Part shown: positions 197 through 61,651 of the stretch, in pieces
Layout: the number at the start of each line of letters is the position of its first letter
Position numbering within the stretch: the stretch's first letter is position 1
NCBI RefSeq assembly: GCF_044324785.1
Contig: NZ_CP172127.1
Strand: one strand, 5' to 3'
DNA from: Escherichia coli
Lineage (GTDB): Bacteria > Pseudomonadota > Gammaproteobacteria > Enterobacterales > Enterobacteriaceae
Length of the DNA stretch: 64,000 nt
Program-made: the position numbers and the translations under genes
The notes under the pieces: generated by a model
Database searches by the model: none
What the model was told of the DNA's origin: nothing
What the model saw: only the letters and a program-made list of their open reading frames with translations

Positions 197-2136
197 TGCC
201 GGAAATTGGTAACGGACTGCTGTGTCTGGCGCTAGGAGTTGCGCTGCTGCTGTCCGTGTATCCGCTATGGGGCGTAGCGCGCGGAGATGCGCGCATGATG
301 GCGTCTTCCCGCTTGTTTGCCTGGCTGCTGTTTATGTCTGTGGCTGGCGCATTTCTGGTACTGGTCAATGCCTTCGTGGTCAACGACTTTACCGTCACCT
401 ATGTTGCCAGCAACTCCAATACCCAGCTCCCGGTGTGGTATCGCGTGGCGGCTACCTGGGGCGCGCATGAAGGCTCGCTCCTGCTGTGGGTGCTGCTGAT
501 GAGCGGCTGGACCTTTGCGGTAGCGATTTTTAGTCAGCGTATTCCGCTGGATATTGTGGCCCGTGTACTGGCGATAATGGGGATGGTCAGTGTCGGCTTT
601 TTGCTGTTCATTCTCTTTACCTCTAACCCGTTCTCACGCACGCTGCCGAATTTCCCGATTGAAGGGCGCGATCTTAACCCGCTGTTGCAGGATCCGGGGC
701 TGATCTTCCATCCGCCTCTGCTCTATATGGGGTACGTCGGTTTCTCGGTGGCGTTTGCTTTCGCCATTGCTTCTTTGTTGAGTGGGCGTCTGGACAGCAC
801 CTATGCGCGTTTTACCCGTCCGTGGACGCTGGCAGCGTGGATCTTCCTGACGCTCGGCATTGTGCTCGGTTCCGCATGGGCCTATTACGAACTCGGCTGG
901 GGTGGCTGGTGGTTCTGGGATCCGGTAGAAAACGCCTCGTTTATGCCGTGGCTGGTGGGGACTGCGCTGATGCACTCACTGGCGGTCACTGAACAACGCG
1001 CCAGCTTCAAAGCGTGGACATTACTGCTGGCAATCAGTGCCTTCTCGTTGTGTCTGTTGGGGACTTTCCTCGTGCGTTCCGGCGTGCTGGTATCGGTACA
1101 CGCGTTTGCCTCTGATCCGGCGCGCGGCATGTTTATCCTCGCCTTTATGGTGCTGGTGATTGGCGGTTCGCTGCTGCTGTTTGCCGCGCGTGGACACAAA
1201 GTTCGCTCACGCGTAAACAATGCGCTGTGGTCGCGAGAATCTCTGCTGTTAGCGAACAACGTTTTGCTGGTCGCCGCGATGCTGGTGGTGTTGCTGGGGA
1301 CGCTGCTGCCGCTGGTGCACAAGCAACTGGGACTGGGCAGTATTTCGATTGGCGAACCGTTCTTCAACACCATGTTTACCTGGCTGATGGTGCCGTTTGC
1401 GCTACTGCTGGGTGTCGGTCCTCTGGTGCGCTGGGGGCGCGATCGCCCACGTAAAATCCGCAATTTATTGATTATCGCCTTCATCTCAACGCTGGTGCTG
1501 TCGCTGCTGTTGCCGTGGCTGTTCGAAAGCAAAGTTGTGGCGATGACGGTGCTCGGCCTGGCAATGGCCTGCTGGATTGCGGTGCTGGCAATTGCGGAAG
1601 CTGCGCTGCGTATTTCACGCGGCACGAAAACCACCTTCAGTTATTGGGGAATGGTGGCGGCTCACCTGGGGCTGGCAGTGACAATTGTTGGTATTGCCTT
1701 TAGCCAGAACTATAGCGTTGAGCGTGATGTGCGCATGAAGTCCGGCGATAGCGTCGATATTCATGAATATCGCTTCACCTTCCGTGATGTCAAAGAGGTG
1801 ACTGGCCCGAACTGGCGTGGCGGTGTGGCGACTATCGGCGTAACGCGCGATGGCAAGCCGGAAACGGTGCTGTATGCGGAAAAACGTTATTACAACACTG
1901 CCGGGTCGATGATGACCGAAGCGGCGATTGACGGCGGCATCACGCGTGACCTGTACGCCGCGCTCGGTGAAGAGCTGGAAAACGGCGCGTGGGCCGTGCG
2001 TCTTTACTACAAACCGTTTGTTCGCTGGATTTGGGCGGGCGGGCTGATGATGGCATTGGGCGGGCTGCTGTGCCTGTTTGATCCTCGCTATCGTAAGCGC
2101 GTGAACCCGCAGAAAACTGCGCCGGAGGCTGTATGA
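193..2136 (+). CDS. ccmF: Cytochrome c heme lyase subunit CcmF
   Basis: 647-aa polytopic membrane protein, Trp-rich WWD-like segment; position between ccmE and ccmG. Confidence 0.95.
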
Positions 2137-2690
2137 AGCGCAAAGTATTGTTAATTCCTTTGATTATCTTCCTGGCGATTGCCGCGGCGCTGCTGTGGCA
2201 GCTGGCGCGTAATGCCGAAGGGGATGATCCGACCAATCTGGAATCGGCGCTCATTGGCAAGCCGGTGCCGAAGTTTCGCCTCGAATCACTGGACAATCCG
2301 GGGCAGTTTTATCAGGCGGATGTTCTGACTCAGGGCAAACCGGTGCTGCTTAACGTCTGGGCGACCTGGTGTCCGACCTGCCGTGCGGAACATCAATATC
2401 TGAATCAGCTTTCTGCGCAGGGCATCCGCGTGGTCGGCATGAACTATAAAGACGATCGCCAGAAGGCAATCAGCTGGCTGAAAGAGCTGGGCAATCCTTA
2501 CGCGCTAAGCCTGTTTGATGGCGATGGCATGTTAGGGCTGGATCTCGGTGTCTATGGCGCGCCAGAAACGTTCCTTATTGACGGCAACGGCATCATTCGC
2601 TATCGCCATGCGGGCGATCTCAATCCTCGCGTCTGGGAGGAAGAGATCAAGCCGCTGTGGGAGAAATACAGTAAGGAGGCCGCACAATGA
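2133..2690 (+). CDS. ccmG: Periplasmic thiol:disulfide oxidoreductase CcmG/DsbE
   Basis: 185 aa, N-terminal membrane anchor, thioredoxin-like WCPTC motif; 4-nt overlap with ccmF. Confidence 0.95.
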   Translation: MKRKVLLIPLIIFLAIAAALLWQLARNAEGDDPTNLESALIGKPVPKFRLESLDNPGQFYQADVLTQGKPVLLNVWATWCPTCRAEHQYLNQLSAQGIRVVGMNYKDDRQKAISWLKELGNPYALSLFDGDGMLGLDLGVYGAPETFLIDGNGIIRYRHAGDLNPRVWEEEIKPLWEKYSKEAAQ

Positions 2691-3739
2691 GGTTTTTATT
2701 GGGCGTGCTGATGCTGATGATCTCCGGCTCAGCGCTGGCGACCATCGACGTGTTGCAGTTTAAAGATGAAGCACAGGAACAACAGTTCCGTCAGCTCACT
2801 GAAGAACTGCGCTGCCCGAAATGCCAGAACAACAGCATTGCCGATTCCAACTCGATGATTGCTACCGACCTGCGCCAGAAAGTGTATGAACTGATGCAGG
2901 AAGGTAAAAGTAAGAAAGAGATTGTCGATTATATGGTGGCGCGTTACGGCAACTTCGTCACTTACGATCCGCCGTTAACGCCGCTGACCGTGCTGCTGTG
3001 GGTGCTTCCGGTAGTGGCTATTGGCATTGGCGGTTGGGTCATTTACGCCCGTTCGCGGCGTCGGGTACGCGTGGTGCCGGACGCGTTTCCTGAACAAAGC
3101 GTGCCGGAAGGTAAGCGTGCCGGATATGTTGTTTATCTGCCGGGTATTGTGGTGGCGTTAATTGTGGCTGGCGTCAGCTACTACCAGACGGGCAATTATC
3201 AGCAGGTGAAAATCTGGCAGCAGGCCACGGCACAGGCTCCGGCGTTACTGGACAGGGCGCTGGATCCGAAAGCCGATCCGCTCAACGAAGAAGAGATGTC
3301 GCGCCTTGCGCTGGGGATGCGTACTCAACTGCAAAAAAATCCGGGAGATATAGAAGGCTGGATTATGTTGGGCCGCGTTGGTATGGCGCTGGGTAACGCC
3401 AGTATCGCCACCGATGCATACGCCACTGCGTATCGCCTCGATCCGAAGAACAGCGATGCTGCACTGGGATACGCTGAAGCGTTGACACGTTCATCTGATC
3501 CCAACGACAACCGTCTCGGCGGCGAACTGCTACGTCAGCTGGTGAGAACGGACCATAGCAATATCCGTGTGTTAAGCATGTATGCGTTTAATGCCTTTGA
3601 GCAGCAGCGATTTGGCGAAGCCGTTGCCGCGTGGGAGATGATGTTGAAACTCTTACCTGCCAACGATACTCGCCGTGCGGTGATTGAACGTAGTATCGCG
3701 CAGGCGATGCAACATTTGTCGCCGCAGGAGAGTAAATAA
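2687..3739 (+). CDS. ccmH: Cytochrome c maturation protein CcmH (fused CcmH/CcmI type)
   Basis: 350 aa, signal peptide, LRCPKC motif, TPR-like C-terminal half; 4-nt overlap with ccmG. Confidence 0.95.
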   Translation: MRFLLGVLMLMISGSALATIDVLQFKDEAQEQQFRQLTEELRCPKCQNNSIADSNSMIATDLRQKVYELMQEGKSKKEIVDYMVARYGNFVTYDPPLTPLTVLLWVLPVVAIGIGGWVIYARSRRRVRVVPDAFPEQSVPEGKRAGYVVYLPGIVVALIVAGVSYYQTGNYQQVKIWQQATAQAPALLDRALDPKADPLNEEEMSRLALGMRTQLQKNPGDIEGWIMLGRVGMALGNASIATDAYATAYRLDPKNSDAALGYAEALTRSSDPNDNRLGGELLRQLVRTDHSNIRVLSMYAFNAFEQQRFGEAVAAWEMMLKLLPANDTRRAVIERSIAQAMQHLSPQESK

Positions 3740-3745
3740 AAAGAG

Positions 3746-3776
3746 GCCCGATGGTGATGCCATCGGGCTATTTTTA
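3746..3776. terminator. Bidirectional rho-independent terminator between convergent ccmH and narP
   Basis: 9-bp stem gcccgatgg/ccatcgggc with 5-nt loop, A-run upstream and T-run downstream. Confidence 0.7.
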
Positions 3777-4421
3777 TTGTGCCCCGCGTTGTTGCAGGAA
3801 CAGAATGGTGGCCGCCACGCGTGAGCGGACATTGAGTTTACGCAGCAGATTGCGAATGTGTACTTTTACTGTCTGCTCGGAAATATTCAACACCGAGGCA
3901 ATCTGTTTATTTGACAGCCCCTGTGCCAGCTCGTGCAGAACATCCAGTTCGCGCTCCGTCAGCACGCTGAAGGGATCTTCTTCCGCGCCAAACATTTCAC
4001 GTTCACGTAAGTACTGATTGACGCGTTCGCTAAAGACTTTGCTGCCTTTCGCTCCGGCACGAATCGCTTCCAGCAACACTTCCGGGTCGCTGTCTTTCAA
4101 CAGATAACCGTCTGCGCCTGCGTCTATCAGCGCAAAGACATCGCTGGAGGCATCGGATACGGTCAGGATAATAATTTGCGCGGTAACGCCATCCCTGCGC
4201 AAGGCATTGAGGGTATCCAGGCCACTCATACCTTTCATATTGAGATCCAGCAAGATCACGTCGATATCCAGTCTATTCGCCAGATCGATCGCGCTCGCGC
4301 CGTCGCCCGCTTCGGCGACCACTTCAAAGCCAGGATCAAGCTCCAGTAACTGACGAACACCGCGTCGCATAAGTGGATGATCATCCACAATCATCACCTG
4401 AAAAGGCGTTGCTTCAGGCAT
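3774..4421 (-). CDS. narP: Nitrate/nitrite response regulator NarP (LuxR/FixJ-type)
   Basis: Receiver domain (MIVDDHPL...) plus C-terminal LuxR-type HTH; start chosen at the internal Met (MPEATPF), not the longer ORF-track start. Confidence 0.9.
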   Translation of the reverse strand: MPEATPFQVMIVDDHPLMRRGVRQLLELDPGFEVVAEAGDGASAIDLANRLDIDVILLDLNMKGMSGLDTLNALRRDGVTAQIIILTVSDASSDVFALIDAGADGYLLKDSDPEVLLEAIRAGAKGSKVFSERVNQYLREREMFGAEEDPFSVLTERELDVLHELAQGLSNKQIASVLNISEQTVKVHIRNLLRKLNVRSRVAATILFLQQRGAQ

Positions 4422-4741
4422 AGTAGTCTCCTGAGGTTTTATTAGAATCATTATGTTTGAGCGTAGCGTTGGTAACGCTACCAGGCGCGTGAATGTTACC
4501 CCATTTTATGTATGGACATGTAGTGAAAACTACAACCTTGTCGTTCGCTTTGGCATCATTTTCATTATAAAGACGGAATTTTGCATCAGCTTCTCATCAA
4601 GAAAAACAACTAAAAAATCAATCACAATACTTGTGCATTTCTTTAAACAGTTTTTAAAAAACTGACTCCGGGTATGGAGCTATGGGTATTTTCTTTACCC
4701 AATGCTTTTAACAGCAATTAATTTCATAGGATGAAAGCTCA

Positions 4742-7333
4742 ATGCATCAATCTGGTTCTGTTTCTCTTTGTCGTTCCGCAATATCTGTTCTGGTGGCTAC
4801 AGCGTTATATTCACCCATAGCATTGGCATCAACTGTTGAGTATGGTGAGACAGTTGATGGTGTTGTCCTGGAAAAAGATATCCAGCTGGTTTATGGGACC
4901 GCCAATAATACGAAAATCAATCCTGGCGGAGAACAGCATATAAAAGAATTTGGTGTAAGTAGTAATACTGAAATTAACGGAGGGTATCAGTACATTGAAA
5001 TGAATGGCACCGCAGAATACTCAGTATTAAATGACGGTTATCAAATTGTTCAAATGGGTGGCGCGGCAAACCAGACTACCCTCAATAATGGTGTGCTACA
5101 GGTTTATGGCGCAGCGAATGATCCCACGATTAAAGGCGGGCGCTTAATCGTTGAAAAAGATGGGATTACCGTCCTTGCCGCTATCGAAAAGGGAGGATTA
5201 CTGGAGGTTAAAGAGGGGGGATTAGCGATTGCGGTAGATCAGAAAGCAGGCGGTGCGATTAAAGCAAGCACGCGGGTCATGGAGGTATTCGGAACAAACC
5301 GTCTCGGTCAGTTCGAAATCAAGAATGGTATTGCTAACAATATGCTGTTGGAAAACGGCGGAAGTTTGCGAGTTGAAGAAAATGACTTCGCTTATAATAC
5401 CACTGTGGATAGTGGCGGCTTACTGGAGGTTATGGATGGCGGGACTGCAACTGGCGTTGATAAAAAAGCAGGCGGAAAATTAATTGTCTCAACGAATGCG
5501 CTGGAAGTGAGTGGTACAAACAGTAAAGGCCAATTTAGTATAAAAGATGGTGTGTCAAAAAATTATGAACTGGATGATGGTTCCGGGCTCATTGTTATGG
5601 AGGACACGCAGGCCATTGACACTATCCTTGATGAGCATGCCACTATGCAATCGCTGGGAAAGGATACTGGGACGAGAGTGCAGGCAAATGCGGTATATGA
5701 TCTCGGTCGATCAGATCAGAATGGAAGTATCACGTATTCCTCAAAAGCCATCTCTGAAAATATGGTTATCAACAATGGCCGCGCTAACGTCTGGGCTGGC
5801 ACAATGGTTAACGTTTCAGTCAGAGGGAATGATGGCATTCTTGAAGTCATGAAGCCGCAAATAAATTATGCGCCCGCAATGTTGGTGGGTAAGGTAGTGG
5901 TTTCTGAGGGCGCTTCTTTTAGAACGCATGGTGCCGTGGATACCAGCAAAGCGGATGTTTCGCTCGAAAATAGCGCATGGACCATCATTGCCGATATCAC
6001 TACGACGAACCAAAACACCCGCCTCAATATAGCCAACCTTGCGATGTCTGGCGCAAATGTGATTATGATGGCTGAGCCAGTGACTCGTTCATCTGTGACG
6101 GCAAGTGCGGAAAATTTCATTACGTTGACCACTAATACCCTGTCGGGAAACGGCAATTTTTATATGCGTACCGATATGGCCAATCATCAGAGCGATCAGC
6201 TCAACGTGGCCGGACAGGCAACAGGTGATTTCAAAATATTCGTGACGGACACCGGTGCCAGCCCGGCAGCAGGAGATAGCCTTACACTGGTAACAACGGG
6301 CGGCGGTGATGCTGCATTTACGTTGGGCAATGCCGGAGGCGTTGTTGATATCGGTACGTATGAATATACCTTGCTGGATAATGGCAACCATAGCTGGAGT
6401 TTGGCAGAGAATCGCGCGCAAATTACCCCTTCAACCACTGATGTGCTGAATATGGCGGCCGCACAACCGCTGGTATTTGATGCAGAACTGGACACCGTGC
6501 GTGAGCGTCTTGGTAGCGTAAAAGGCGTTAATTACGATACGGCGATGTGGAGTTCGGCAATTAACACCCGCAACAACGTGACCACTGATGCGGGAGCTGG
6601 CTTTGAGCAAACATTGACGGGGCTGACGCTCGGTATCGATAGCCGTTTCTCCCGTGAAGAAAGCAGCACAATTCGCGGCTTGTTCTTTGGTTACTCTCAT
6701 TCTGATATTGGTTTTGATCGCGGCGGCAAAGGCAATATTGATAGCTACACCTTGGGGGCTTATGCCGGTTGGGAGCATCAGAACGGTGCCTATGTTGATG
6801 GGGTGGTGAAAGTTGACCGTTTTGCCAACACCATCCATGGCAAGATGAGTAATGGGGCAACAGCGTTTGGCGATTACAATAGTAACGGCGCGGGTGCTCA
6901 TGTCGAGAGCGGGTTCCGTTGGGTTGACGGATTGTGGAGTGTTAGACCCTATCTCGCCTTTACCGGCTTTACCACAGATGGTCAGGACTACACGTTATCA
7001 AACGGCATGCGCGCGGATGTGGGAAATACCCGGATATTACGCGCTGAAGCGGGAACGGCGGTAAGCTATCACATGGACCTGCAAAACGGTACGACGTTGG
7101 AACCCTGGCTGAAAGCCGCCGTGCGTCAGGAATACGCCGATTCTAACCAGGTGAAAGTTAATGACGATGGCAAATTTAATAATGATGTGGCTGGAACCCG
7201 TGGCGTTTATCAGGCTGGGATAAGGTCATCGTTTACCCCGACGTTAAGCGGTCATTTGTCTGTCAGCTATGGCAATGGCGCAGGGGTAGAATCACCGTGG
7301 AATACTCAGGCGGGTGTGGTCTGGTCGTTCTGA
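4742..7333 (+). CDS. yejO: Autotransporter (type Va) outer-membrane protein, adhesin-like
   Basis: 863 aa; N-terminal signal peptide, Gly/Asn/Thr-rich repetitive passenger, C-terminal beta-barrel region ending in aromatic residue (…VVWSF). Confidence 0.85.
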   Translation: MHQSGSVSLCRSAISVLVATALYSPIALASTVEYGETVDGVVLEKDIQLVYGTANNTKINPGGEQHIKEFGVSSNTEINGGYQYIEMNGTAEYSVLNDGYQIVQMGGAANQTTLNNGVLQVYGAANDPTIKGGRLIVEKDGITVLAAIEKGGLLEVKEGGLAIAVDQKAGGAIKASTRVMEVFGTNRLGQFEIKNGIANNMLLENGGSLRVEENDFAYNTTVDSGGLLEVMDGGTATGVDKKAGGKLIVSTNALEVSGTNSKGQFSIKDGVSKNYELDDGSGLIVMEDTQAIDTILDEHATMQSLGKDTGTRVQANAVYDLGRSDQNGSITYSSKAISENMVINNGRANVWAGTMVNVSVRGNDGILEVMKPQINYAPAMLVGKVVVSEGASFRTHGAVDTSKADVSLENSAWTIIADITTTNQNTRLNIANLAMSGANVIMMAEPVTRSSVTASAENFITLTTNTLSGNGNFYMRTDMANHQSDQLNVAGQATGDFKIFVTDTGASPAAGDSLTLVTTGGGDAAFTLGNAGGVVDIGTYEYTLLDNGNHSWSLAENRAQITPSTTDVLNMAAAQPLVFDAELDTVRERLGSVKGVNYDTAMWSSAINTRNNVTTDAGAGFEQTLTGLTLGIDSRFSREESSTIRGLFFGYSHSDIGFDRGGKGNIDSYTLGAYAGWEHQNGAYVDGVVKVDRFANTIHGKMSNGATAFGDYNSNGAGAHVESGFRWVDGLWSVRPYLAFTGFTTDGQDYTLSNGMRADVGNTRILRAEAGTAVSYHMDLQNGTTLEPWLKAAVRQEYADSNQVKVNDDGKFNNDVAGTRGVYQAGIRSSFTPTLSGHLSVSYGNGAGVESPWNTQAGVVWSF

Positions 7334-7394
7334 TAACAGACAATAAACAGGCCGTGATGTGTCGCGGTCTGTTTATCGAATTAAATGCAGATAT

Positions 7395-7427
7395 AAAAAA
7401 ACCAACCGTAAAGGTTGGTTTTTTTTT
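7395..7427. terminator. Bidirectional rho-independent terminator (serves yejO and tRNA-Pro)
   Basis: A-run, stem accaacc/ggttggt, then 8-T run; symmetric, so functional on both strands. Confidence 0.8.
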
Positions 7428-7435
7428 GGGATTTT

Positions 7436-7512
7436 TGGTCGGCACGAGAGGATTTGAACCTCCGACCCCCGACACCCCATGACGGTGCGCTACCAGGCTG
7501 CGCTACGTGCCG
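7436..7512 (-). tRNA. proL: tRNA-Pro
   Basis: 77-nt sequence with cloverleaf-compatible arms, T-loop GGTTCAAATCC and 3' CCA (reverse complement of the given strand); matches recalled proL. Confidence 0.9.
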
Positions 7513-7586: not shown

Positions 7587-9347
7587 TCAGTTAGCGATAA
7601 AACGCTTCTCGTCTGTCAGTACTTGCAATAACAAACTTAACTGTGGTTTTTCATCTTTCACTCTTTCACCACGTAAGTTGTAAGTACGGTATTTACCGTT
7701 ATTGTTCAGCACCAGCGTCTTTTTCGGGGTGGTAATTGCCAGCGTATCGTTATCCGCGGCGGTAACCCAGTAATGACGGCGTTGAGGGTTGAACAAATCC
7801 TGACCTTGCGAATATTCGCTGGCAGGTGTGCTGACATGTAGCAGGCGTTGCATCAGCGTCGTCATCAGATCGGTATGATCAGTCAGAGCATTAATACGCT
7901 GCGCCGGCGTGCCTGGCCAGTGAATCACTAATGGTACCTGCAGATGACCGTGAGACCAGTCAAAGGTTTCTTCCTCTTCGCTCAGCGGAATACCCCGACC
8001 GGCAGTGATAATCACCACCGTATTGTCCAGTTTGCCAGAATCACGCAGTGCATTGAGCACGCGGTTGATCTGGTCATCGACATTGCCTGCCGCCCGGCTA
8101 TATTTCCGTGAAAATGCCTGCTGATTGCTGTCGTCAATGTTAGTGCCATTGAAAGAGACCCACGAGAACCAGCGGTTATCTTCTTGTGCGTAGCGGCCCA
8201 GCCAGTTGATCCACTGCGTGGCGGTCTGCTCGTCGGATTGGGTACGTACGCTCGGCATCGAGAAATCTGACAACAATGCCTGGCGATACAGCGGGCTGGT
8301 AAAGCCATCCGACGAGAATAACCCCAGCTGATAGCCTTGCTGATTAAGCGCAGTAATTAACGCCGCAGGCGTACGAGTCGACAGAATGCCGTCCATATAG
8401 CTCGGCGAGATGCCATAGAACAGGCCAAAGATGCCGTTGTCTGTAGTGTTGCCGGAGCTCATATGGCGCGTGAACGAAATATTTTGCTCAGCAAAACCTG
8501 CCAGCGCAGGCATCTGCTTCTCGAAGCGTGAGTAGTTCAGGCCATCGACAGTAATCAACAGCACATTCTGCCCGGTGCCCATATCGCGATAGCGCAGTTC
8601 GCTTAACGGATACTGAACGGAAACGGCGTCTGGATTACCTTGCTCAATGAGACGGCGTTGATATTCCTGCGCATCCAGCAGACCATGCTTCTCAAGAAAA
8701 CGTCGCGCCGTCATCGGATACGAAAGCGGCAGGTTAGCGCGCTGCATGGTGATCGGGCGATAGAAGTTGGCATCGGCCCAGATATACACCACATGCGAGG
8801 CGATAAAGGCGATAAATAAGAATGCGGCCAGCGGGCGCGCGAAGCGTCGACGACGCGTCAGGCTTCGCAGCTTTTGCCAGCTCCACGTCGCAAACACCAG
8901 TTCAAGCAATAAAATAACCGGCACGCTGATGAACATCAGCTGCCAGTCGCGCGCCATCTCATTTTCGTCTGGGTTGATAATCAGCTGCCAGACGATGGGA
9001 TTAAGATGGAGATGGAAACGAGTAAAGACTTCGCTATCGATCAGTAATAGCGTCATTCCCGCCGTTGCCAGAATGACGGACAAAAACCTCATCAGCCTCT
9101 GGGAGCCGACGATAAAGGTCAGCGGGAAGAGGATCAGCAAGTAGGTGGCGAACACCAGGAAGCTGAAATGGCCGATAATGCTTACGTAGGAATAAATGCG
9201 ACCAGCAAGCGTTGTCGGCCAGTCGGCGATAAACAGGTAACGGCTGCCAATGACGAGCGAAAGCAGAATATTGAACAGTGCAAACCAGTGCCCCCAACTG
9301 ACCATCTGGGAGACTTTTTCACGGTAGCGCTGACGATGAGTTACCAT
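7587..9347 (-). CDS. yejM: Inner-membrane protein YejM (PbgA/LapC), LPS/cardiolipin homeostasis, sulfatase-like periplasmic domain
   Basis: 586 aa; N-terminal multi-TM region followed by large soluble domain. Confidence 0.9.
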   Translation of the reverse strand: MVTHRQRYREKVSQMVSWGHWFALFNILLSLVIGSRYLFIADWPTTLAGRIYSYVSIIGHFSFLVFATYLLILFPLTFIVGSQRLMRFLSVILATAGMTLLLIDSEVFTRFHLHLNPIVWQLIINPDENEMARDWQLMFISVPVILLLELVFATWSWQKLRSLTRRRRFARPLAAFLFIAFIASHVVYIWADANFYRPITMQRANLPLSYPMTARRFLEKHGLLDAQEYQRRLIEQGNPDAVSVQYPLSELRYRDMGTGQNVLLITVDGLNYSRFEKQMPALAGFAEQNISFTRHMSSGNTTDNGIFGLFYGISPSYMDGILSTRTPAALITALNQQGYQLGLFSSDGFTSPLYRQALLSDFSMPSVRTQSDEQTATQWINWLGRYAQEDNRWFSWVSFNGTNIDDSNQQAFSRKYSRAAGNVDDQINRVLNALRDSGKLDNTVVIITAGRGIPLSEEEETFDWSHGHLQVPLVIHWPGTPAQRINALTDHTDLMTTLMQRLLHVSTPASEYSQGQDLFNPQRRHYWVTAADNDTLAITTPKKTLVLNNNGKYRTYNLRGERVKDEKPQLSLLLQVLTDEKRFIAN

Positions 9348-23178: not shown

Positions 23179-23745
23179 TTAGCTGCGGCTGAGAACCCGG
23201 CGTGCTTCGTTGTAACGCTTCTTCCAGTACGGTTCATTCATGCTGGAAATAATAACACCACTGCTGGTGGAAGCATGGACAAACTGATTGTTGCCGATAT
23301 AAATACCGACATGGCGTCCCGTTGAACCGGCACGGAACAGAACTAAATCACCCGTACGCAAATTACTGCGGGAAACAGATTTACCCATTTCCTGCTGTTC
23401 GTAAGTCGAACGCGGAAGTTCTAAGCCAAATTGCTCACGGAATGTACGCTGTACGAAACCAGAACAATCGATACCTTTTTTAGTGCTGCCGCCCAGACGA
23501 TAGCGTACGCCTTTCCAGTCAGCATACTGATCCATAATTCGCGATTTTACGTCGACATTACGAACCAGGTTTTCAAATTCATCCTGAGAAGCTTGCAGTG
23601 ATGATGTTTCACTACCCACTGCACGTGTCTCAGGATGCATATTCTTTGCGGTGTTATTTGCACTACATGCAGAAAGCAGAACCGCTACTGCAATCGCGGG
23701 AATCCCGCGCAAGATATATCTCAAAATCGGTTGAGATTTGACCAT
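23179..23745 (-). CDS. mepS: NlpC/P60 peptidoglycan DD-endopeptidase lipoprotein MepS (Spr)
   Basis: 188 aa, lipobox (LSAC), catalytic Cys in the DCSGF motif. Confidence 0.9.
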
Positions 23746-24156
23746 GTTGTTTGTTTTCCCTTGAAGTCCTTAACGACAAATATCGTTATAAAAAAATGCC
23801 AAGCGACATGAGACTAATTACCTGGGCATGTTGAAACAATTCCTTAAGGCCAAATCTGTGGACTAACGCACAAAATTATATGCTGTGAGGATAATCTACC
23901 GCCGAGGCAAAACGAGTTCGAGATTACCCGATTGGTGCGGTCTTGGCGAGCGGTTTTACATGATTTTTTATAAGAAAAAGTGATACAGAAAGTTAATAAA
24001 CGGGATTGGTCAATTAAAGTACGATTGAGTGAAACGCATGCAATCCATTCATTTACTTAGAGAATGATTTTTACGCGCGATGGATGAAAGCACGGTGCGC
24101 ATCATCAGGATTATCCTCACTATAAAAATAACCCTGATGATGTTAATTACTGTGAG

Positions 24157-24870
24157 TTATTTGTTTTGGAAATGTTTGTTTTTTCCCGGTAGTGATTTGT
24201 CAAAAAAGGTGATTAATCGATCACTTAATGGCGTCAGCAACACCCAGGGCAAACCGATCAATATCACGGTCATCGAACCGACAATGATGTCAGTAAACCA
24301 GTGTGCGCCAATCATTACTCTGGGAAACGCAAAAACCACAAAAATAATAAGGGCGATAAGGCCTGCAACTTTGCCGAAATAACGCCACATGAATGCCGAA
24401 AAAATAAGCAGCATCATACCGTGATCGCCGGGAAAGCTATCTCGTGAGGCATCTTTCGTGGGAACAGAGAGCAGTTCGCTGACGCGGTTAATATCGGTAA
24501 AAGTCAATGTTGGGCTGGCCCGTTTTACAGGAATTAATGCCTGACCCAGCTGGTTTAATACCACTGCAGTTAATAGCATGACCAGACCAATAATCACGAT
24601 ACGTCGTCTGCCTGGGGCGTTTTCTTTCAGCCAGAAACTCAGCATCAACATTCCCATCGCCAGCAGTGAACAACCGTCGAAAGCGCGATTGTTGGTCAAT
24701 GCAACCAGCCACAAAAAGGCCTTACTTTCGACCAGTTTCTGATTAAAGAAATAAAAAATATCCGCATCAATCGGCAACCAGAATCCATGATTAACGGGTA
24801 TATACCAGGAAAGAAACAGCGCGAGGCCGACAATATTCAACAACACTATTTGCGGCAAATTTTTAATCAT
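24157..24870 (-). CDS. lpxT: Lipid A 1-diphosphate synthase LpxT (PAP2 family)
   Basis: 237 aa from internal Met (MIKNLPQ); multi-TM PAP2-like. Confidence 0.85.
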   Translation of the reverse strand: MIKNLPQIVLLNIVGLALFLSWYIPVNHGFWLPIDADIFYFFNQKLVESKAFLWLVALTNNRAFDGCSLLAMGMLMLSFWLKENAPGRRRIVIIGLVMLLTAVVLNQLGQALIPVKRASPTLTFTDINRVSELLSVPTKDASRDSFPGDHGMMLLIFSAFMWRYFGKVAGLIALIIFVVFAFPRVMIGAHWFTDIIVGSMTVILIGLPWVLLTPLSDRLITFFDKSLPGKNKHFQNK

Positions 24871-32313: not shown

Positions 32314-34005
32314 ATGAAAACGCTGCTGATTATTGACGCTAATCTCGGTCAGGCACGCGCCTATATGGCGAAGACCCTGCTGGGCGCGGCGGCGCGAAAA
32401 GCAAAACTGGAAATCATCGACAATCCGAACGACGCTGAAATGGCGATTGTTCTCGGTGATTCCATCCCGAACGACAGCGCGCTGAACGGTAAAAATGTCT
32501 GGCTGGGCGATATTTCCCGGGCAGTTGCGCACCCTGAGCTGTTCCTGAGTGAAGCCAAAGGCCATGCGAAACCTTACACTGCGCCGGTCGCTGCGGCAGC
32601 ACCGGTTGCCGCCAGCGGTCCGAAACGCGTAGTTGCGGTGACTGCTTGCCCGACTGGCGTAGCACACACCTTTATGGCGGCTGAAGCCATTGAAACCGAA
32701 GCGAAAAAACGTGGCTGGTGGGTGAAAGTTGAAACCCGTGGTTCGGTTGGCGCGGGTAATGCAATCACCCCTGAAGAAGTAGCCGCAGCGGATCTGGTGA
32801 TTGTGGCGGCAGATATTGAAGTGGATCTGGCGAAATTTGCTGGTAAACCGATGTATCGCACCTCTACCGGTCTGGCGCTGAAGAAAACCGCGCAGGAGCT
32901 GGATAAAGCGGTTGCTGAAGCAACGCCGTATGAACCGGCGGGCAAAGCTCAAACGGCGACCACTGAAGGTAAGAAAGAGAGTGCAGGCGCTTATCGTCAC
33001 TTGCTGACGGGCGTTTCTTACATGCTGCCGATGGTCGTTGCAGGTGGTCTGTGTATCGCGCTTTCCTTTGCTTTTGGTATCGAAGCGTTTAAAGAGCCGG
33101 GTACGTTGGCAGCGGCGCTGATGCAGATTGGTGGTGGTTCAGCCTTTGCGCTGATGGTGCCGGTACTGGCAGGTTATATTGCCTTCTCCATTGCCGATCG
33201 TCCGGGTCTCACGCCGGGTCTGATTGGCGGTATGCTGGCGGTCAGCACTGGTTCTGGCTTCATTGGCGGTATTATTGCGGGCTTCCTGGCTGGTTACATT
33301 GCGAAGTTAATCAGTACGCAATTGAAACTGCCACAGAGTATGGAGGCGCTGAAACCGATTCTGATCATTCCGCTAATTTCCAGTCTGGTGGTCGGTCTGG
33401 CGATGATCTACCTGATCGGTAAACCGGTTGCTGGCATTCTCGAAGGGTTGACTCACTGGCTGCAGACCATGGGGACTGCGAATGCGGTTCTGCTGGGGGC
33501 GATCCTCGGTGGCATGATGTGTACTGACATGGGCGGTCCGGTAAACAAAGCAGCGTACGCGTTCGGTGTGGGTCTGCTGAGTACTCAAACCTATGGCCCG
33601 ATGGCGGCGATTATGGCGGCAGGTATGGTGCCACCGCTGGCAATGGGCCTGGCAACAATGGTGGCGCGTCGCAAATTCGACAAAGCGCAGCAGGAAGGGG
33701 GCAAAGCCGCTCTGGTATTGGGACTGTGCTTCATTTCGGAAGGTGCAATTCCGTTTGCTGCTCGTGATCCGATGCGTGTGCTGCCGTGCTGTATCGTGGG
33801 TGGGGCGCTGACTGGCGCAATCTCAATGGCGATTGGTGCGAAACTGATGGCACCGCACGGTGGTCTGTTTGTTCTGCTGATCCCTGGCGCGATTACGCCG
33901 GTATTGGGTTACCTGGTAGCCATTATTGCCGGTACGCTGGTGGCGGGTCTGGCCTATGCCTTCCTGAAACGTCCGGAAGTGGACGCAGTAGCGAAAGTAG
34001 CTTAA
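32314..34005 (+). CDS. fruA: Fructose PTS EIIB'BC component FruA
   Basis: 563 aa; duplicated N-terminal EIIB-type domains then polytopic EIIC. Confidence 0.95.
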   Translation: MKTLLIIDANLGQARAYMAKTLLGAAARKAKLEIIDNPNDAEMAIVLGDSIPNDSALNGKNVWLGDISRAVAHPELFLSEAKGHAKPYTAPVAAAAPVAASGPKRVVAVTACPTGVAHTFMAAEAIETEAKKRGWWVKVETRGSVGAGNAITPEEVAAADLVIVAADIEVDLAKFAGKPMYRTSTGLALKKTAQELDKAVAEATPYEPAGKAQTATTEGKKESAGAYRHLLTGVSYMLPMVVAGGLCIALSFAFGIEAFKEPGTLAAALMQIGGGSAFALMVPVLAGYIAFSIADRPGLTPGLIGGMLAVSTGSGFIGGIIAGFLAGYIAKLISTQLKLPQSMEALKPILIIPLISSLVVGLAMIYLIGKPVAGILEGLTHWLQTMGTANAVLLGAILGGMMCTDMGGPVNKAAYAFGVGLLSTQTYGPMAAIMAAGMVPPLAMGLATMVARRKFDKAQQEGGKAALVLGLCFISEGAIPFAARDPMRVLPCCIVGGALTGAISMAIGAKLMAPHGGLFVLLIPGAITPVLGYLVAIIAGTLVAGLAYAFLKRPEVDAVAKVA

Positions 34006-34018
34006 TAAAACGTGAACG

Positions 34019-34043
34019 ACAGGGCAGAAATTTCCTGCCCTGT
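34019..34043 (+). terminator. Hairpin immediately 3' of fruA (weak terminator, no strong T-run)
   Basis: 9-bp stem acagggcag/ctgccctgt with 7-nt loop. Confidence 0.45.
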
Positions 34044-34159
34044 ATCATTTGAAGATCGCAAGGTGACTGACTAGTTCTTGAGGGTAACTATATGAATTTT
34101 ATGTTTTTATCTTTAAGTTGAAACCAGAAATCTCATCAAACGTTAATGTTATTTCCTCA

Positions 34160-34187
34160 AGGGCAGATTATTTTCTGCCCTTTTTTA
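34160..34187 (+). terminator. Rho-independent terminator in the fruA-psuK spacer
   Basis: Stem agggcaga/tctgccct followed by a 6-T run; stem sequence nearly identical to the hairpin at 34019. Confidence 0.7.
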
Positions 34188-34326
34188 TTGTTCCTGTTCT
34201 GTGCATCCCGTCACAAATTCCCCGTTTTTATAATTCAGGCATTTAATCGCGTTTTGTGAGCCTGCTCAAATCTGCCCATTTTGCCTCTCTGGCGGTAATT
34301 TACTTTACGTAAAACATGCATACTAT

Positions 34327-34360
34327 GAGCACATGTTTAAATATGAACACATGTTTAAAC
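34327..34360. promoter_or_regulatory. Tandem direct repeats (candidate operator) upstream of psuK
   Basis: gagcacatgtttaaat and gaacacatgtttaaac, 18-bp period, each with palindromic cores (acatgt, tttaaa). Confidence 0.3.
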
Positions 34361-34426
34361 CGTCTTTGCAGTATCAATATTCTTGTGGATTGACAGGGTT
34401 GGTAATTTTTTACCAGAGGACGTGCT

Positions 34427-35368
34427 ATGCGCGAAAAGGATTATGTCGTAATTATAGGTTCGGCGAATATTGATGTCGCCGGATATTCACATGAATCATT
34501 AAATTATGCGGATTCAAATCCAGGTAAAATAAAATTTACGCCTGGTGGAGTCGGGCGCAATATTGCACAAAACCTGGCGTTGCTGGGGAACAAAGCCTGG
34601 CTACTGAGCGCCGTAGGCAGTGATTTTTATGGTCAATCGCTGCTAACGCAAACCAATCAATCTGGCGTTTATGTCGATAAATGCCTGATAGTGCCGGGAG
34701 AAAATACGTCAAGCTATTTATCATTACTCGATAATACCGGTGAAATGCTGGTTGCTATAAATGACATGAATATTAGCAACGCTATTACAGCTGAATATCT
34801 CGCACAGCACCGTGAATTTATTCAGAGGGCAAAGGTCATTGTCGCAGACTGTAATATCAGTGAAGAGGCACTGGCATGGATTCTGGATAATGCCGCCAAC
34901 GTACCTGTATTTGTCGATCCTGTTTCCGCGTGGAAATGTGTCAAAGTGCGCGACCGTCTAAATCAAATCCACACTCTCAAGCCAAACCGCCTTGAAGCGG
35001 AAACCCTGAGTGGGATTGCGCTGTCAGGGCGTGAAGATGTGGCAAAAGTTGCTGCCTGGTTCCATCAACATGGCCTGAACCGACTGGTATTGAGCATGGG
35101 CGGCGACGGCGTTTATTACAGCGATATCAGCGGTGAAAGTGGCTGGTCTGCGCCGATCAAAACCAATGTTATTAATGTTACCGGAGCGGGCGATGCCATG
35201 ATGGCGGGGCTTGCTTCGTGTTGGGTAGACGGAATGCCGTTTGCCGAATCTGTTCGTTTCGCACAGGGATGTTCGTCAATGGCGCTCTCCTGTGAATACA
35301 CCAATAACCCCGATTTATCGATTGCCAACGTTATATCGTTAGTGGAGAACGCAGAATGTCTGAATTAA
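34427..35368 (+). CDS. psuK: Pseudouridine kinase (PfkB family)
   Basis: 313 aa; PfkB motifs (GGVGRN; C-terminal GAGD). Confidence 0.9.
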   Translation: MREKDYVVIIGSANIDVAGYSHESLNYADSNPGKIKFTPGGVGRNIAQNLALLGNKAWLLSAVGSDFYGQSLLTQTNQSGVYVDKCLIVPGENTSSYLSLLDNTGEMLVAINDMNISNAITAEYLAQHREFIQRAKVIVADCNISEEALAWILDNAANVPVFVDPVSAWKCVKVRDRLNQIHTLKPNRLEAETLSGIALSGREDVAKVAAWFHQHGLNRLVLSMGGDGVYYSDISGESGWSAPIKTNVINVTGAGDAMMAGLASCWVDGMPFAESVRFAQGCSSMALSCEYTNNPDLSIANVISLVENAECLN

Positions 35369-37705: not shown

Positions 37706-38365
37706 TTACTGCATCATCCCGGAGAATTTATTCTCCGGGTCCATCTCCAGTGCCAGTCCTGACAACTGCTTTCTGTTTTTAATTAGATACCCTTTCTTGC
37801 TTTTAATTAATAAACCGTCGTGAATGAATTGCGCGAGAACATATAAAAGATGTCGATAAGAAACGCCTAAATACTCTGCCGCTTGCGTATGCTTTTCGTG
37901 ATAAAGATCACCTTCCTGCGAGAGTAATATAAAAGCTGCCAGGCGATTCACTAATGGAAATGATTGATTCTGAGTTAAAGAAACAATATTACGATAATTT
38001 TTATGACTTAAGGTGACGCAGAGTTTTCGTAAAAATAGCGTGTCGTTTAATAACAGCGGGCGGTAATGTTTCATAGGGAGCGCAAGGCACCAACACTCTT
38101 CAATAGCCTGCACCGCACGCGGTTCATGGTCTTTGTCGATTAACTCAATCTCGCCAATAAAACAGGGGGCGGCAAAGAAATCGATCAGCGACACGCGACC
38201 ATTAGCTAGCGTGGCGTAAAGCCTGGCGCGGCCTCGCGTCAGGTAAAACAGCCAGGACGGCTGTTGCCCTTCCTGCACAATGTAGTCACGCGCTAAAAAA
38301 TGAAACAGCCGCGTATCGGCTGAAACATCCGTTGAAAAGCAATCCTTAAACGCGGATTCACTCAT
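37706..38365 (-). CDS. yeiL: CRP/FNR-family transcriptional regulator YeiL
   Basis: 219 aa from internal Met (MSESAF); N-terminal nucleotide-binding-like domain, C-terminal HTH; Cys residues. Confidence 0.8.
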
Positions 38366-58230: not shown

Positions 58231-59462
58231 GAGCAAGCTCCCTCTAAATAGTGATGAATCGCCCCGGCGGCTTCTTTCCCGGTTTTCACGGCATAGACCA
58301 CGGTTTTGTCACCCTCAACAATATCGCCAGCAGCAAAGACTTGCGGATCGCGGGTCTGATAATTTTGTGTTTTGATGGTGTTACGCTGCGGCTCTAACTC
58401 CGCAAAGGCATCCAGTCTGGCATGCTGACCGACGGCGAGAATAATTTTATCTGCCGCCATCGTCAGTTCGCCCGGTAACCGTACATGCTTAAACGTGACT
58501 TTATTGCCTTCCACGGCTACTGGCGTGAATCCATCGATGATCGAAACGCCCAGCTCCCGGGCGCTGGCAAACTCTTTTTCGCTTGCCGGAAACTCATCTA
58601 ACTCTTCACGCGCTACGCAAGTTACTGCCTGACAGCCGAGAACTTTCAGCGTGCTGGCTACGTCCATCGCGACATCACCGCCGCCGATAATTAATGCGTT
58701 TTGTGGAATGCTGATATCGCCTTGCGCCTGTCGTGCACGTTGCAAGAAGTCGACGGCAATCTCAACGTCGCTATGCTCAAACAGTGGTAGCCCGGAACCG
58801 CTAGATAACCCCACGGTGACCAGTACCGCGCGGTTTTCCGCTTTCAGCTGCTCCAGGGTGAGTGTTTTACCGATTTCATTATTGCACTTAATGGTCACGC
58901 CCATTTTTTCAATACGGACGATTTCTGCATCCAGTACTGATTGCGGTAACCGGAATTGCGGAATGCCGTTACGCAACCAGCCACCGGGTTGTGCTTCTTT
59001 CTCATAGATCGTGACGTCATAACCCTGGTTTGTCAGCGTCACACTGGCCTGCAATCCCGCAGGACCTGCGCCAATAATCGCGACTTTGCCGAGCGTTTTA
59101 GTACCGGGCTGATAAATTTCCATCCCGGTTTGTTGTTCAAAATCAGTAACAAAACGCTGTAAGCGGCCGATATCAATGGGAGCATCAACACCGGCACGGG
59201 TACAACCGCTTTGGCATAATTTCTCCGTCGGGCACACTCTGGCACAAACGGCACCGAGGGCATTATTTTCGCGAATTGTCTCGGCAGCGCCTTTAAAATT
59301 ACGAAAGTAGATTGAGCGAATAAATTTACCCGGATCGGTCTGTGCCGGGCAAGCCTGACTACAGGGAGCGTCATGACATAATAAACAGCGAGAGGCTTCT
59401 TTAATCGCCAGTAAAGGCGTAAAAGCCGGAGTGAGTTCATCCAGATAATTTTGTTGCGGCAT
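58224..59462 (-). CDS. preT: NAD-dependent dihydropyrimidine dehydrogenase subunit PreT
   Basis: 412 aa; Fe-S cysteines at N-terminus, dinucleotide-binding GAGPAG motif. Confidence 0.9.
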
Positions 59463-59655
59463 GTGATCTTCCTTAATGCTATGAGTAATTAAGGCGAACG
59501 CTAAATAAATATTGCGTGCTGATATTAAGGCTATGCGCGTGGGGAAATTTAAACTGTGAAAGGATTCACAAATAGCTGCGGTTCAGAATGTTATATCCGC
59601 AGCTTATTGAGTGAAGTAATAATTATTCTCAATAATTAACAGAAAAGAGAAAATA

Positions 59656-61651
<1,996 letters not shown>

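Follow-up and report, generated by a model that had tools for sequence, protein, structure and literature searches.

The locus described here lies in a window of 64,000 nucleotides (nt) of Escherichia coli DNA (contig NZ_CP172127.1 of assembly GCF_044324785.1; "the window" below means this whole stretch). It comprises, in order, ccmH, narP, yejO, proL and yejM, which the list of open reading frames (ORFs), a tRNA scan and genome comparison identify as the standard E. coli arrangement. The gene of interest, yejO, codes for a putative autotransporter and occupies the interval between narP and the tRNA-Pro gene proL. We consider it likely that this is the ordinary narP-yejO-proL-yejM locus of the species with an intact yejO allele, the gene having entered the proL hotspot as an old, single insertion of 2.8 kb that became fixed in E. 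coli. An earlier note, made from the sequence alone, had drawn attention to the site for its uninterrupted narP-yejO junction, at which K-12 was said to carry an IS5 copy, and for an AT-rich gene at the 3' end of a tRNA.

Throughout, the locus was compared with 5426 complete E. coli genomes. The closest is that of E. coli N3 (99.9% identity), most others being 97.5-98.5% identical; yejO, narP, tRNA-Pro and yejM are the RefSeq features under matches in thousands of genomes. Other comparison loci are designated by L numbers. The insertion, which we call the islet, and its borders are laid out as follows.

4422 to 4535, no strand assigned: narP upstream block, conserved across genera and ending ...GTAGTGAAAACT, which is the left yejO junction (alignments with L007, L098, Citrobacter empty sites and E. 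albertii)
4536 to 7386, plus strand: yejO islet of about 2.85 kb, missing from empty sites (junction alignments)
4536 to 4741, plus strand: AT-rich region upstream of yejO, presumed to bear its promoter (GC content; no strong sigma-70 consensus match)
4742 to 7333, plus strand: yejO coding sequence, intact, 863 amino acids (aa), predicted type Va autotransporter (ORF, domain and cluster matches)
7343 to 7376, plus strand: hairpin ATAAACAGGCCGTGA/TCGCGGTCTGTTTAT just 3' of the yejO stop, likely the yejO terminator (inverted repeat; E. albertii alignment)
7395 to 7425, no strand assigned: perfect 13-bp hairpin with A-run and T-run, AAAAAAACCAACC/GGTTGGTTTTTTT, the proL terminator (inverted repeat; all empty sites)
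7436 to 7512, minus strand: tRNA-Pro(GGG), proL (ARAGORN; Rfam RF00005)

Empty sites identify yejO as an insertion

With NarP as the anchor, 80 loci from a collection of one genome per species were searched for YejO, YejM, CcmH and tRNAs. Among them a YejO homologue stood beside narP only in E. albertii, whose protein is 77% identical to that of the window overall (passenger 67%, barrel 94%). In four Citrobacter loci (L015, L016, L022 and L029) only a spacer of about 207 bp separates proL from narP, which has the same orientation. The ancestral arrangement has narP directly downstream of proL on the same strand.

Empty sites also occur within Escherichia, in two lineages that were extended by exact-protein look-ups. 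The first is represented by L007, an Escherichia genome labelled E. coli SCPM-O-B-8794, with flanking genes diverged by about 8%. Here proL and narP are 183 bp apart, and in the alignment about 25 bp stand in place of window positions 4532-7386. The order yejM-proL-narP without yejO was found in all 24 contigs read that encode the L007 YejM (SCPM-O-B-8794 lineage, L007 and L091-L094). In the second, the E69 lineage typified by E. coli E69 (flanks 4-7% diverged), narP lies directly beside yejM, about 330 bp away, in four of the five loci shown (L098, L099, L101 and L102); the fifth, L100, has no yejO and carries an island at proL, and L006, the truncated record of E69 itself, has the same empty-type spacer. 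The spacers of the two lineages are mutually homologous over about 24 nt and collinear with the Citrobacter spacer, and they are bounded by the narP block ...GTAGT(G/A)AAAAC(C)TG on one side and by the proL terminator hairpin AAAAAAACCAACC...GGTTGG on the other. This hairpin (7395-7425 in the window) is present in all empty sites and is ancestral.

The empty narP-proL sites of Citrobacter and of the two Escherichia lineages therefore show yejO to be an insertion. E. coli and E. albertii align through both yejO junctions, including the small hairpin 3' of the yejO stop, so that the yejO genes of the two species stem from a single insertion event. The islet has a sharp left end, and its right end falls within 7334-7386. 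Possible homology of the yejO terminator region to the Citrobacter spacer was considered for placing the right boundary and proved too weak to fix it. The 2.8-kb insertion, old and due to one event, consists of yejO with AT-rich upstream DNA and a terminator of its own; it lies in what was a short spacer, with the proL terminator hairpin on one side and the conserved block upstream of narP on the other.

Within E. coli the gene is close to ubiquitous. Sequence of yejO, at least as a remnant, was found in 5421 of the 5426 complete genomes, always on the chromosome, with at least 80% of its length in one place in 4281, and none of the 5426 has an empty narP-proL junction. The earlier note had held that any acquisition would be old, and the identical junctions in E. 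albertii and the near-fixation in E. coli bear this out. It had also proposed that universal presence at the locus, jointly with ordinary GC and codon usage, would speak against acquisition; yejO is near-universal in E. coli and not universal in the genus.

Base composition

The window's most AT-rich stretch coincides with the start of the islet: the 500-bp segment beginning at 4501 ranks lowest in GC of the entire 64 kb, at 37.0% (0.2 percentile). The narP-yejO intergenic region has 36% GC and yejO overall 48.6%. GC at third codon positions (GC3) in yejO is 0.473, against a mean and standard deviation of 0.565 +/- 0.053 for 51 ORFs in the window, and its codon-usage log-likelihood is 0.027, against 0.143 +/- 0.055 for the same ORFs; both values are the third lowest. 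GC3 rises along the gene, from 0.30 over its first 300 nt through 0.41-0.46 over the following 900 nt to 0.48-0.58, an average level, in the barrel-coding 3' part, and low GC is limited to the upstream region plus the first ~1.5 kb of yejO. The statement in the earlier note that the gene is visibly more AT-rich than its flanks accordingly applies to the 5' half, but not to the 3' half. The contrast with the flanks is exaggerated since the ccm operon on the left is GC-rich (54-58% GC). As for an acquired islet, the composition differs from that of the host genome, the deviation being moderate and confined to the 5' half.

One could argue that AT-richness says nothing about origin, being the product of repeat-rich passenger amino acids and of relaxed codon selection in a barely expressed gene. 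The barrel-coding part of yejO does reach the genome-average GC, yejO of K-12 is very poorly expressed (PMC10392735), and other genes of the window have equally low GC3 (e.g., those at 23179-23745 and 34427-35368). Nevertheless, we regard this explanation as unlikely. GC3, which is independent of amino-acid content, stays at 0.30-0.46 over the first 1.2 kb of yejO, and the most AT-rich 500 bp of the window take in the non-coding upstream part of the islet. The empty sites, moreover, are independent comparative evidence and show the insertion whatever the composition.

Further AT-rich 500-bp segments (37.6-41.6% GC) occur around 34001-34500, 23501-24250 and 59251-59750, with low-GC3 ORFs nearby at 23179-23745, 24157-24870, 34427-35368 and 37706-38365. 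These segments are candidates for further acquired genes.

The proL hotspot and the route of acquisition

A gap of 102 bp separates the yejO stop codon (7333) from proL, whose 3' end points towards yejO; the gene does lie next to a tRNA 3' end, as the earlier note had described. That this is a typical site for acquired islets is also supported. In other strains the proL 3' end serves as an attachment site for islands, and direct repeats of the tRNA 3' end mark the junctions in L004, L005 and L008. The island of E. coli 2012C-4221 (L004, 23737-34062; ~10 kb) has two integrase genes and satellite-phage-like genes, and its products include a RepA-family helicase, a PerC-family regulator, an Icd-like protein and a ClpP-like prohead protease/major capsid fusion. 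Besides three integrase genes, that of E. coli 20KM2762 (L005, 23755-42884; 19 kb) has a relaxase, an AlpA regulator and an annotated ABC-three-component (defence-type) system; its limits are marked by a 19-nt repeat of the tRNA 3' end. Both islands have their integrase end against the intact tRNA and show, on the side towards yejO, an incomplete copy of the tRNA 3' end (TGGTCGGCACGAGAGGATT in L005, GCACGAGAG in L004). The junction of L004, GGCACGAGAG joined to TAGTTTAATTGAG, recurs in the E. albertii type strain (L008, reverse complement, from 13643), and a related proL island with PerC, ProQ, SSB and DUF927 occupies 9000-15053 of L100, in the E69 lineage that lacks yejO. Since the present-day islands of L004, L005 and L008 sit between yejO and proL, yejO lies outside the currently active attachment site.

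The literature and the other genera add to this picture. In Shigella flexneri 1c, tRNA-Pro and yejO bound a gtrIC prophage remnant (PMC4924310), and in Salmonella SPI-12 adjoins proL (PMC7143636); we found no tRNA within 10 kb of narP in Salmonella, consistent with the location of SPI-12 beside proL. Several Citrobacter loci carry cargo in the proL-narP interval itself: a gtrA/gtrB/gtr (DUF6056) glucosylation cluster (L021, 6983-9833), a gene for a 472-aa colicin-like pore-forming bacteriocin with Cloacin and Colicin pore-forming domains (L009, 7904-9322), a umuC-like polymerase gene with a gtr remnant (L023, 5172-6443) and, in L010, an integrase remnant with copies of hairpin plus tRNA on both sides. 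The cargo of L009, L021 and L023 is low in GC (40-50%, against 53-55% for the locus), and several cargos start immediately past the conserved block at narP. Read most simply, what can be replaced here is limited by selection acting on the region upstream of narP and on the proL terminator.

The yejO islet resembles the proL islands (SPI-12, the gtrIC remnant, and the satellite-like or mobilizable islands of E. coli and E. albertii) in occupying the same variable interval 3' of proL, in being atypical in composition and in being absent from relatives that keep the empty site. Unlike them, it has neither an integrase nor a repeat of the tRNA 3' end, is set off from the tRNA by the ancestral terminator hairpin, and consists of a single gene that is fixed in the species and not strain-specific. 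The absence of an integrase and of a tRNA-derived repeat had already been reported in the earlier note, and our searches agree. Within 4452-4741 the best local alignment to the tRNA 3' end scores 7, below the shuffle mean of 7.9, and 457 of 500 shuffles score as high or higher; in the sequence around this region, too, no match rose above the shuffles. No direct or inverted terminal repeats bound the islet, where we found just short chance matches and the two terminator hairpins; 4536-7386 holds no integrase gene, yejO being its lone long ORF. The insertion point is outside the tRNA: between the tRNA and the islet stands the ancestral hairpin of the proL terminator. Of the earlier proposal of a horizontally acquired islet at a tRNA gene, the acquisition itself therefore stands, on the empty sites and the composition, but the islet is not in the tRNA, and tRNA-targeted integration is just a possible route.

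It is tempting to speculate that yejO is cargo left behind by an element that integrated into the proL 3' end by means of a tyrosine integrase, and whose other genes and distal attachment site were later deleted. A bare gtrABC cluster, typical prophage cargo, stands in exactly the same interval in Citrobacter L021, with the hairpin still beside the tRNA. The island of L010 shows how yejO could have come to lie outside the hairpin: its element supplies its own hairpin-plus-tRNA end, so that the position of yejO is compatible with a cargo origin. Use of proL in this way continues today (L004, L005, L008, L010, L018, L100; PMC4924310). While this scenario would be our best guess as to mechanism, we hold it to be a possibility that falls somewhat short of even odds, for 4452-4741 contains no relic of the tRNA 3' end, the islet has no fragments of phage or integrase genes and no terminal repeats, no close YejO homologue was found among sequenced phages and plasmids, and the proL hairpin of the window lines up with its counterpart in the empty sites. 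Plasmid and phage matches of at least 95% identity were examined and set aside as chromosomes or chromosome fragments filed as plasmids, plus the terminal 44-codon host flank of a Mu record.

History of yejO within Escherichia

Neighbour-joining trees of ccmF-ccmH, narP and yejM, with Citrobacter as outgroup, give the branching order (((E. coli, E69 lineage), SCPM lineage), E. albertii), which has the yejO-bearing taxa at its two ends. Several points weigh against an old single insertion fixed in E. coli. In these trees E. albertii, which bears yejO, branches outside both empty lineages, and simple vertical inheritance therefore needs losses or transfer; single-locus trees are themselves weak evidence in a recombining genus. 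No attachment-site relic, integrase remnant or terminal repeat speaks for any insertion mechanism. No donor was found, the best genuine plasmid and phage homologues of YejO being at most 46% identical. Finally, the compositional deviation of yejO is only moderate, at about -1.7 standard deviations for GC3 and -2.1 for codon usage.

The tree topology invites the opposite polarity, with yejO present in the common ancestor of all Escherichia and lost later from the E69-like and SCPM-O-B-8794-like lineages, so that the empty sites would be derived. E. albertii has yejO at the same junctions and falls outside the empty lineages for all three flanking genes; moreover, the barrel-coding part of yejO is 85-91% identical between E. 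albertii and E. coli, against ~90% for the flanks, which fits co-divergence with the species, and the gene is prone to deletion in E. coli. What makes this unlikely is the spacer. Although the flank trees do not join the two empty lineages as sisters, both have the homologous spacer of ~24 nt, which was not found in yejO-bearing genomes and whose place between conserved blocks is that of the Citrobacter spacer. A shared spacer collinear with that of Citrobacter would not arise anew from two separate clean deletions, and for this reason we take the empty allele to be ancestral. Deletions in E. coli, furthermore, leave remnants and not clean empty sites.

With an insertion as the starting point, the patchy distribution is due either to an ancestral polymorphism that was sorted among the lineages or to exchange of the insertion between species through recombination in the flanks. 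Recombination at the locus is illustrated by L086 (GCA_032210145.1), a mosaic that combines ccmC-ccmH at 99-100% identity to the SCPM lineage with a yejM resembling that of E. coli, and whose yejO passenger allele is just 83-86% identical to that of the window (aligned to window positions 239-2900 and 4859-6047). This genome shows both between-species recombination at the locus and deep allelic diversity of the passenger. Its use as proof that an SCPM-like lineage once had yejO was ruled out, the breakpoint being in ccmH, upstream of narP. One could envision, in a more speculative vein, that the spacer between the proL terminator and narP is a recurrent landing site for integrase-free cargo in Enterobacteriaceae and that yejO crossed the boundary between E. 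coli and E. albertii by homologous recombination via narP and yejM, lineages in between keeping the empty allele. We put this forward tentatively, as rather less probable than not.

YejO, a predicted type Va autotransporter

The ORF at 4742-7333 on the plus strand is an uninterrupted frame of 863 aa, and the earlier description of a complete autotransporter gene is upheld by its domains and by a full-length match (98% identity, 100% coverage) to an 863-aa protein cluster named YejO with 16,859 member sequences. Its parts are the following.

4742 to 4828, plus strand: codons of a predicted N-terminal signal peptide, MHQSGSVSLCRSAISVLVATALYSPIALA followed by S (read by eye from the translation)
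5000 to 6406, plus strand: passenger, AIDA strand-loop-strand repeats and Pertactin domain, about aa 87-555 (Pfam, PDB matches)
6545 to 7264, plus strand: beta-barrel translocator domain, aa 602-841 (PF03797, TIGR01414, BrkA/Vag8 matches)

Pfam finds PF16168 (AIDA) in two stretches at 2.4e-51 and PF03212 (Pertactin) at 1.3e-45, and the barrel is matched by PF03797 over aa 602-841 at 6.2e-46 and by TIGR01414 at 4.8e-111. Sequence matches in the PDB are, for the passenger, those of Ag43, the AIDA-I family and TibA (E values of 1e-25 to 1e-37) as well as pertactin and, for the barrel, BrkA (3qq2) and Vag8. At the level of sequence, the AIDA and Pertactin domains with the Ag43, TibA and pertactin matches are those of a beta-helical passenger, and the profile matches those of the C-terminal 12-stranded beta-barrel translocator of a type Va autotransporter. 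The C-terminus reads ...AGVVWSF, with the terminal aromatic residue of such barrels, and the N-terminus, MHQSGSVSLCRSAISVLVATALYSPIALA followed by STVEY, has the hydrophobic core and A-L-A motif of a putative signal peptide, as judged by eye from the translation. YejO would be a classical type Va autotransporter, with a Sec signal peptide, a beta-helical passenger and a C-terminal barrel that would carry the passenger across the outer membrane.

Full-length identity and the narP-yejO-proL-yejM order place the protein in the YejO orthologue group. It is the gene known as YejO (b2190), "adhesin-like autotransporter YejO", at the same locus; the K-12 copy is a pseudogene split by IS5K, whereas the window allele, 97.6% identical in DNA to MG1655 yejO over its full length with IS5 excluded, is intact and free of IS5, frameshift or deletion. 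With Ag43, AIDA-I and TibA it has in common the AIDA repeats, the pertactin-like domain and the autotransporter barrel, but its passenger is shorter and adhesion or self-association is only putative for YejO. Its scores fall well short of the NCBIfam equivalog cut-offs, both for Ag43/Cah (NF033177, 130.5 against 1200 bits) and for AIDA-I (NF033176, 70.2 against 1200), and it thus forms a separate subfamily. By analogy with these three proteins, YejO is probably a surface adhesin or aggregation factor; our search of the literature found no functional study of intact YejO.

IS5 in K-12 and the decay of yejO

The position of the IS5 element was taken from an alignment of the window with the K-12-type locus L001, and one feature is needed here.

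4805 to 4808, plus strand: TTAT, the 4-bp target duplicated by IS5K in K-12, unbroken here (alignment with K-12-type locus L001)

The element is 1195 bp long, has the ends GGAAGGTGCGAA...TTCGCACCTTCC and lies between duplicated copies of TTAT, 64-67 nt into the yejO coding sequence at about codon 22, among the signal-peptide codons and not in the narP-yejO intergenic region. The MG1655 annotation names it IS5K/insH8 and splits yejO into two fragments, and IS5 at the yejO locus of K-12 has been reported (PMC11005336, PMC11677980). The earlier note was right that K-12 has IS5 at this locus, but the element is inside yejO, 64 nt in, not at the junction. The window reads straight through 4805-4808 and is not the K-12-type allele. 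A 100-nt probe across the K-12 junction matched in full in 357 of the 5426 genomes; the IS5-free state (~93% of complete genomes) is therefore the normal one and K-12 the unusual strain. Lack of IS5, to which the earlier note had drawn attention, is no notable feature of the window.

Other disrupted forms, taken from sampled rows, are varied. IS5 interrupts the gene in K-12 and IS50 in H45, and in STEC388 (L096, from 4231 onward) a Mu-like prophage (Mor, Gp27) breaks it after nt 231. The allele of N3 (L002, 2043-4633) has a single-base indel and is annotated as frameshifted, which may reflect either true inactivation in recent times or a mistake in the assembly; 20KM2762 has an internal stop, and AR24.2b an in-frame deletion of 222 bp. 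In JJ1886 and ST131-type strains (the large deletions of phylogroup B2/ST131) yejO is cut to a 923-bp remnant without the barrel, and the gene has been reported as missing from ST131 (PMC5654935). In K-12 RNA-seq compendia yejO is among the least-expressed annotated genes, as measured on the disrupted allele (PMC10392735). Different lineages have knocked out yejO independently, by IS5K, by other insertion elements and phage, by frameshifts and by large deletions, and the gene appears dispensable and poorly expressed.

The record of "Escherichia virus Mu_3F6" (LR595867.1) opens with 44 yejO codons (97.7% identical); these are probably the host flank of a different Mu insertion in yejO.

Flanking genes and the narP upstream region

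The genes that frame the locus are these.

2687 to 3739, plus strand: ccmH (ORF list)
3774 to 4421, minus strand: narP, nitrate/nitrite response regulator, 215 aa (annotated start; the longest ORF, 225 aa, reaches 4451)
7587 to 9347, minus strand: yejM, flanking core gene (ORF list, genome comparison)

NarP of the window matches E. coli E69 NarP at 100% identity and its Citrobacter and Salmonella counterparts at 88-92%. Its start is annotated at 4421, with an AGGAG ribosome-binding site ahead of it, the ATG at 4451 merely opening the longest ORF. The narP-yejO intergenic region consequently measures 320 bp, not the 290 bp given in the earlier note, which was correct in calling the region uninterrupted: it is free of insertion elements and colinear in alignment with other E. 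coli genomes. A sigma-70 consensus scan found no match within 4422-4741, and the tRNA was the sole match in the Rfam scan. An ATG ORF of 70 aa at 4453-4665 (plus strand) runs from the narP upstream block into the start of the islet; as it spans the insertion junction, it is almost certainly no gene.

Part of the narP upstream block (4455-4535) is kept from Escherichia to Salmonella and contains TTACCCCA...TGG(G/A)(C/T)A motifs as well as a hairpin, GCGTAGCGTT/AACGCTAC; the Citrobacter counterpart of this hairpin differs in sequence and is still palindromic (CAGCACAT...ATGTGCTG). The hairpin and motifs may be a regulatory site or a leader structure for narP. On the other side of narP, the ccmH-narP spacer of the window (3740-3773) is 34 bp long and has one terminator hairpin; it is ~175 bp longer in K-12 and many other strains (L001, 1041-1250), where duplicated hairpin halves enclose two REP-like palindromes (a BIME-like element).

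Significance

The gene, its disruption by IS5 in K-12 and the proL hotspot have all been described before. What the present comparison contributes is, first, that the window has a potentially functional yejO, a gene inactivated in K-12 and in ST131, and, second, that the K-12 IS5 is placed correctly, within yejO and not at the intergenic junction. Third, a near-ubiquitous E. coli gene is recognized as an old insertion at a proL-linked hotspot, with ancestral empty sites persisting in sister Escherichia lineages. Were the narP-proL spacer indeed a recurrent landing site and had yejO crossed between species, a species-wide "core" gene for a surface protein of E. coli would be an introgressed allele. 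The locus has little import beyond annotation, and makes a tidy example, for teaching and for pangenome studies, of how "core" genes arise.

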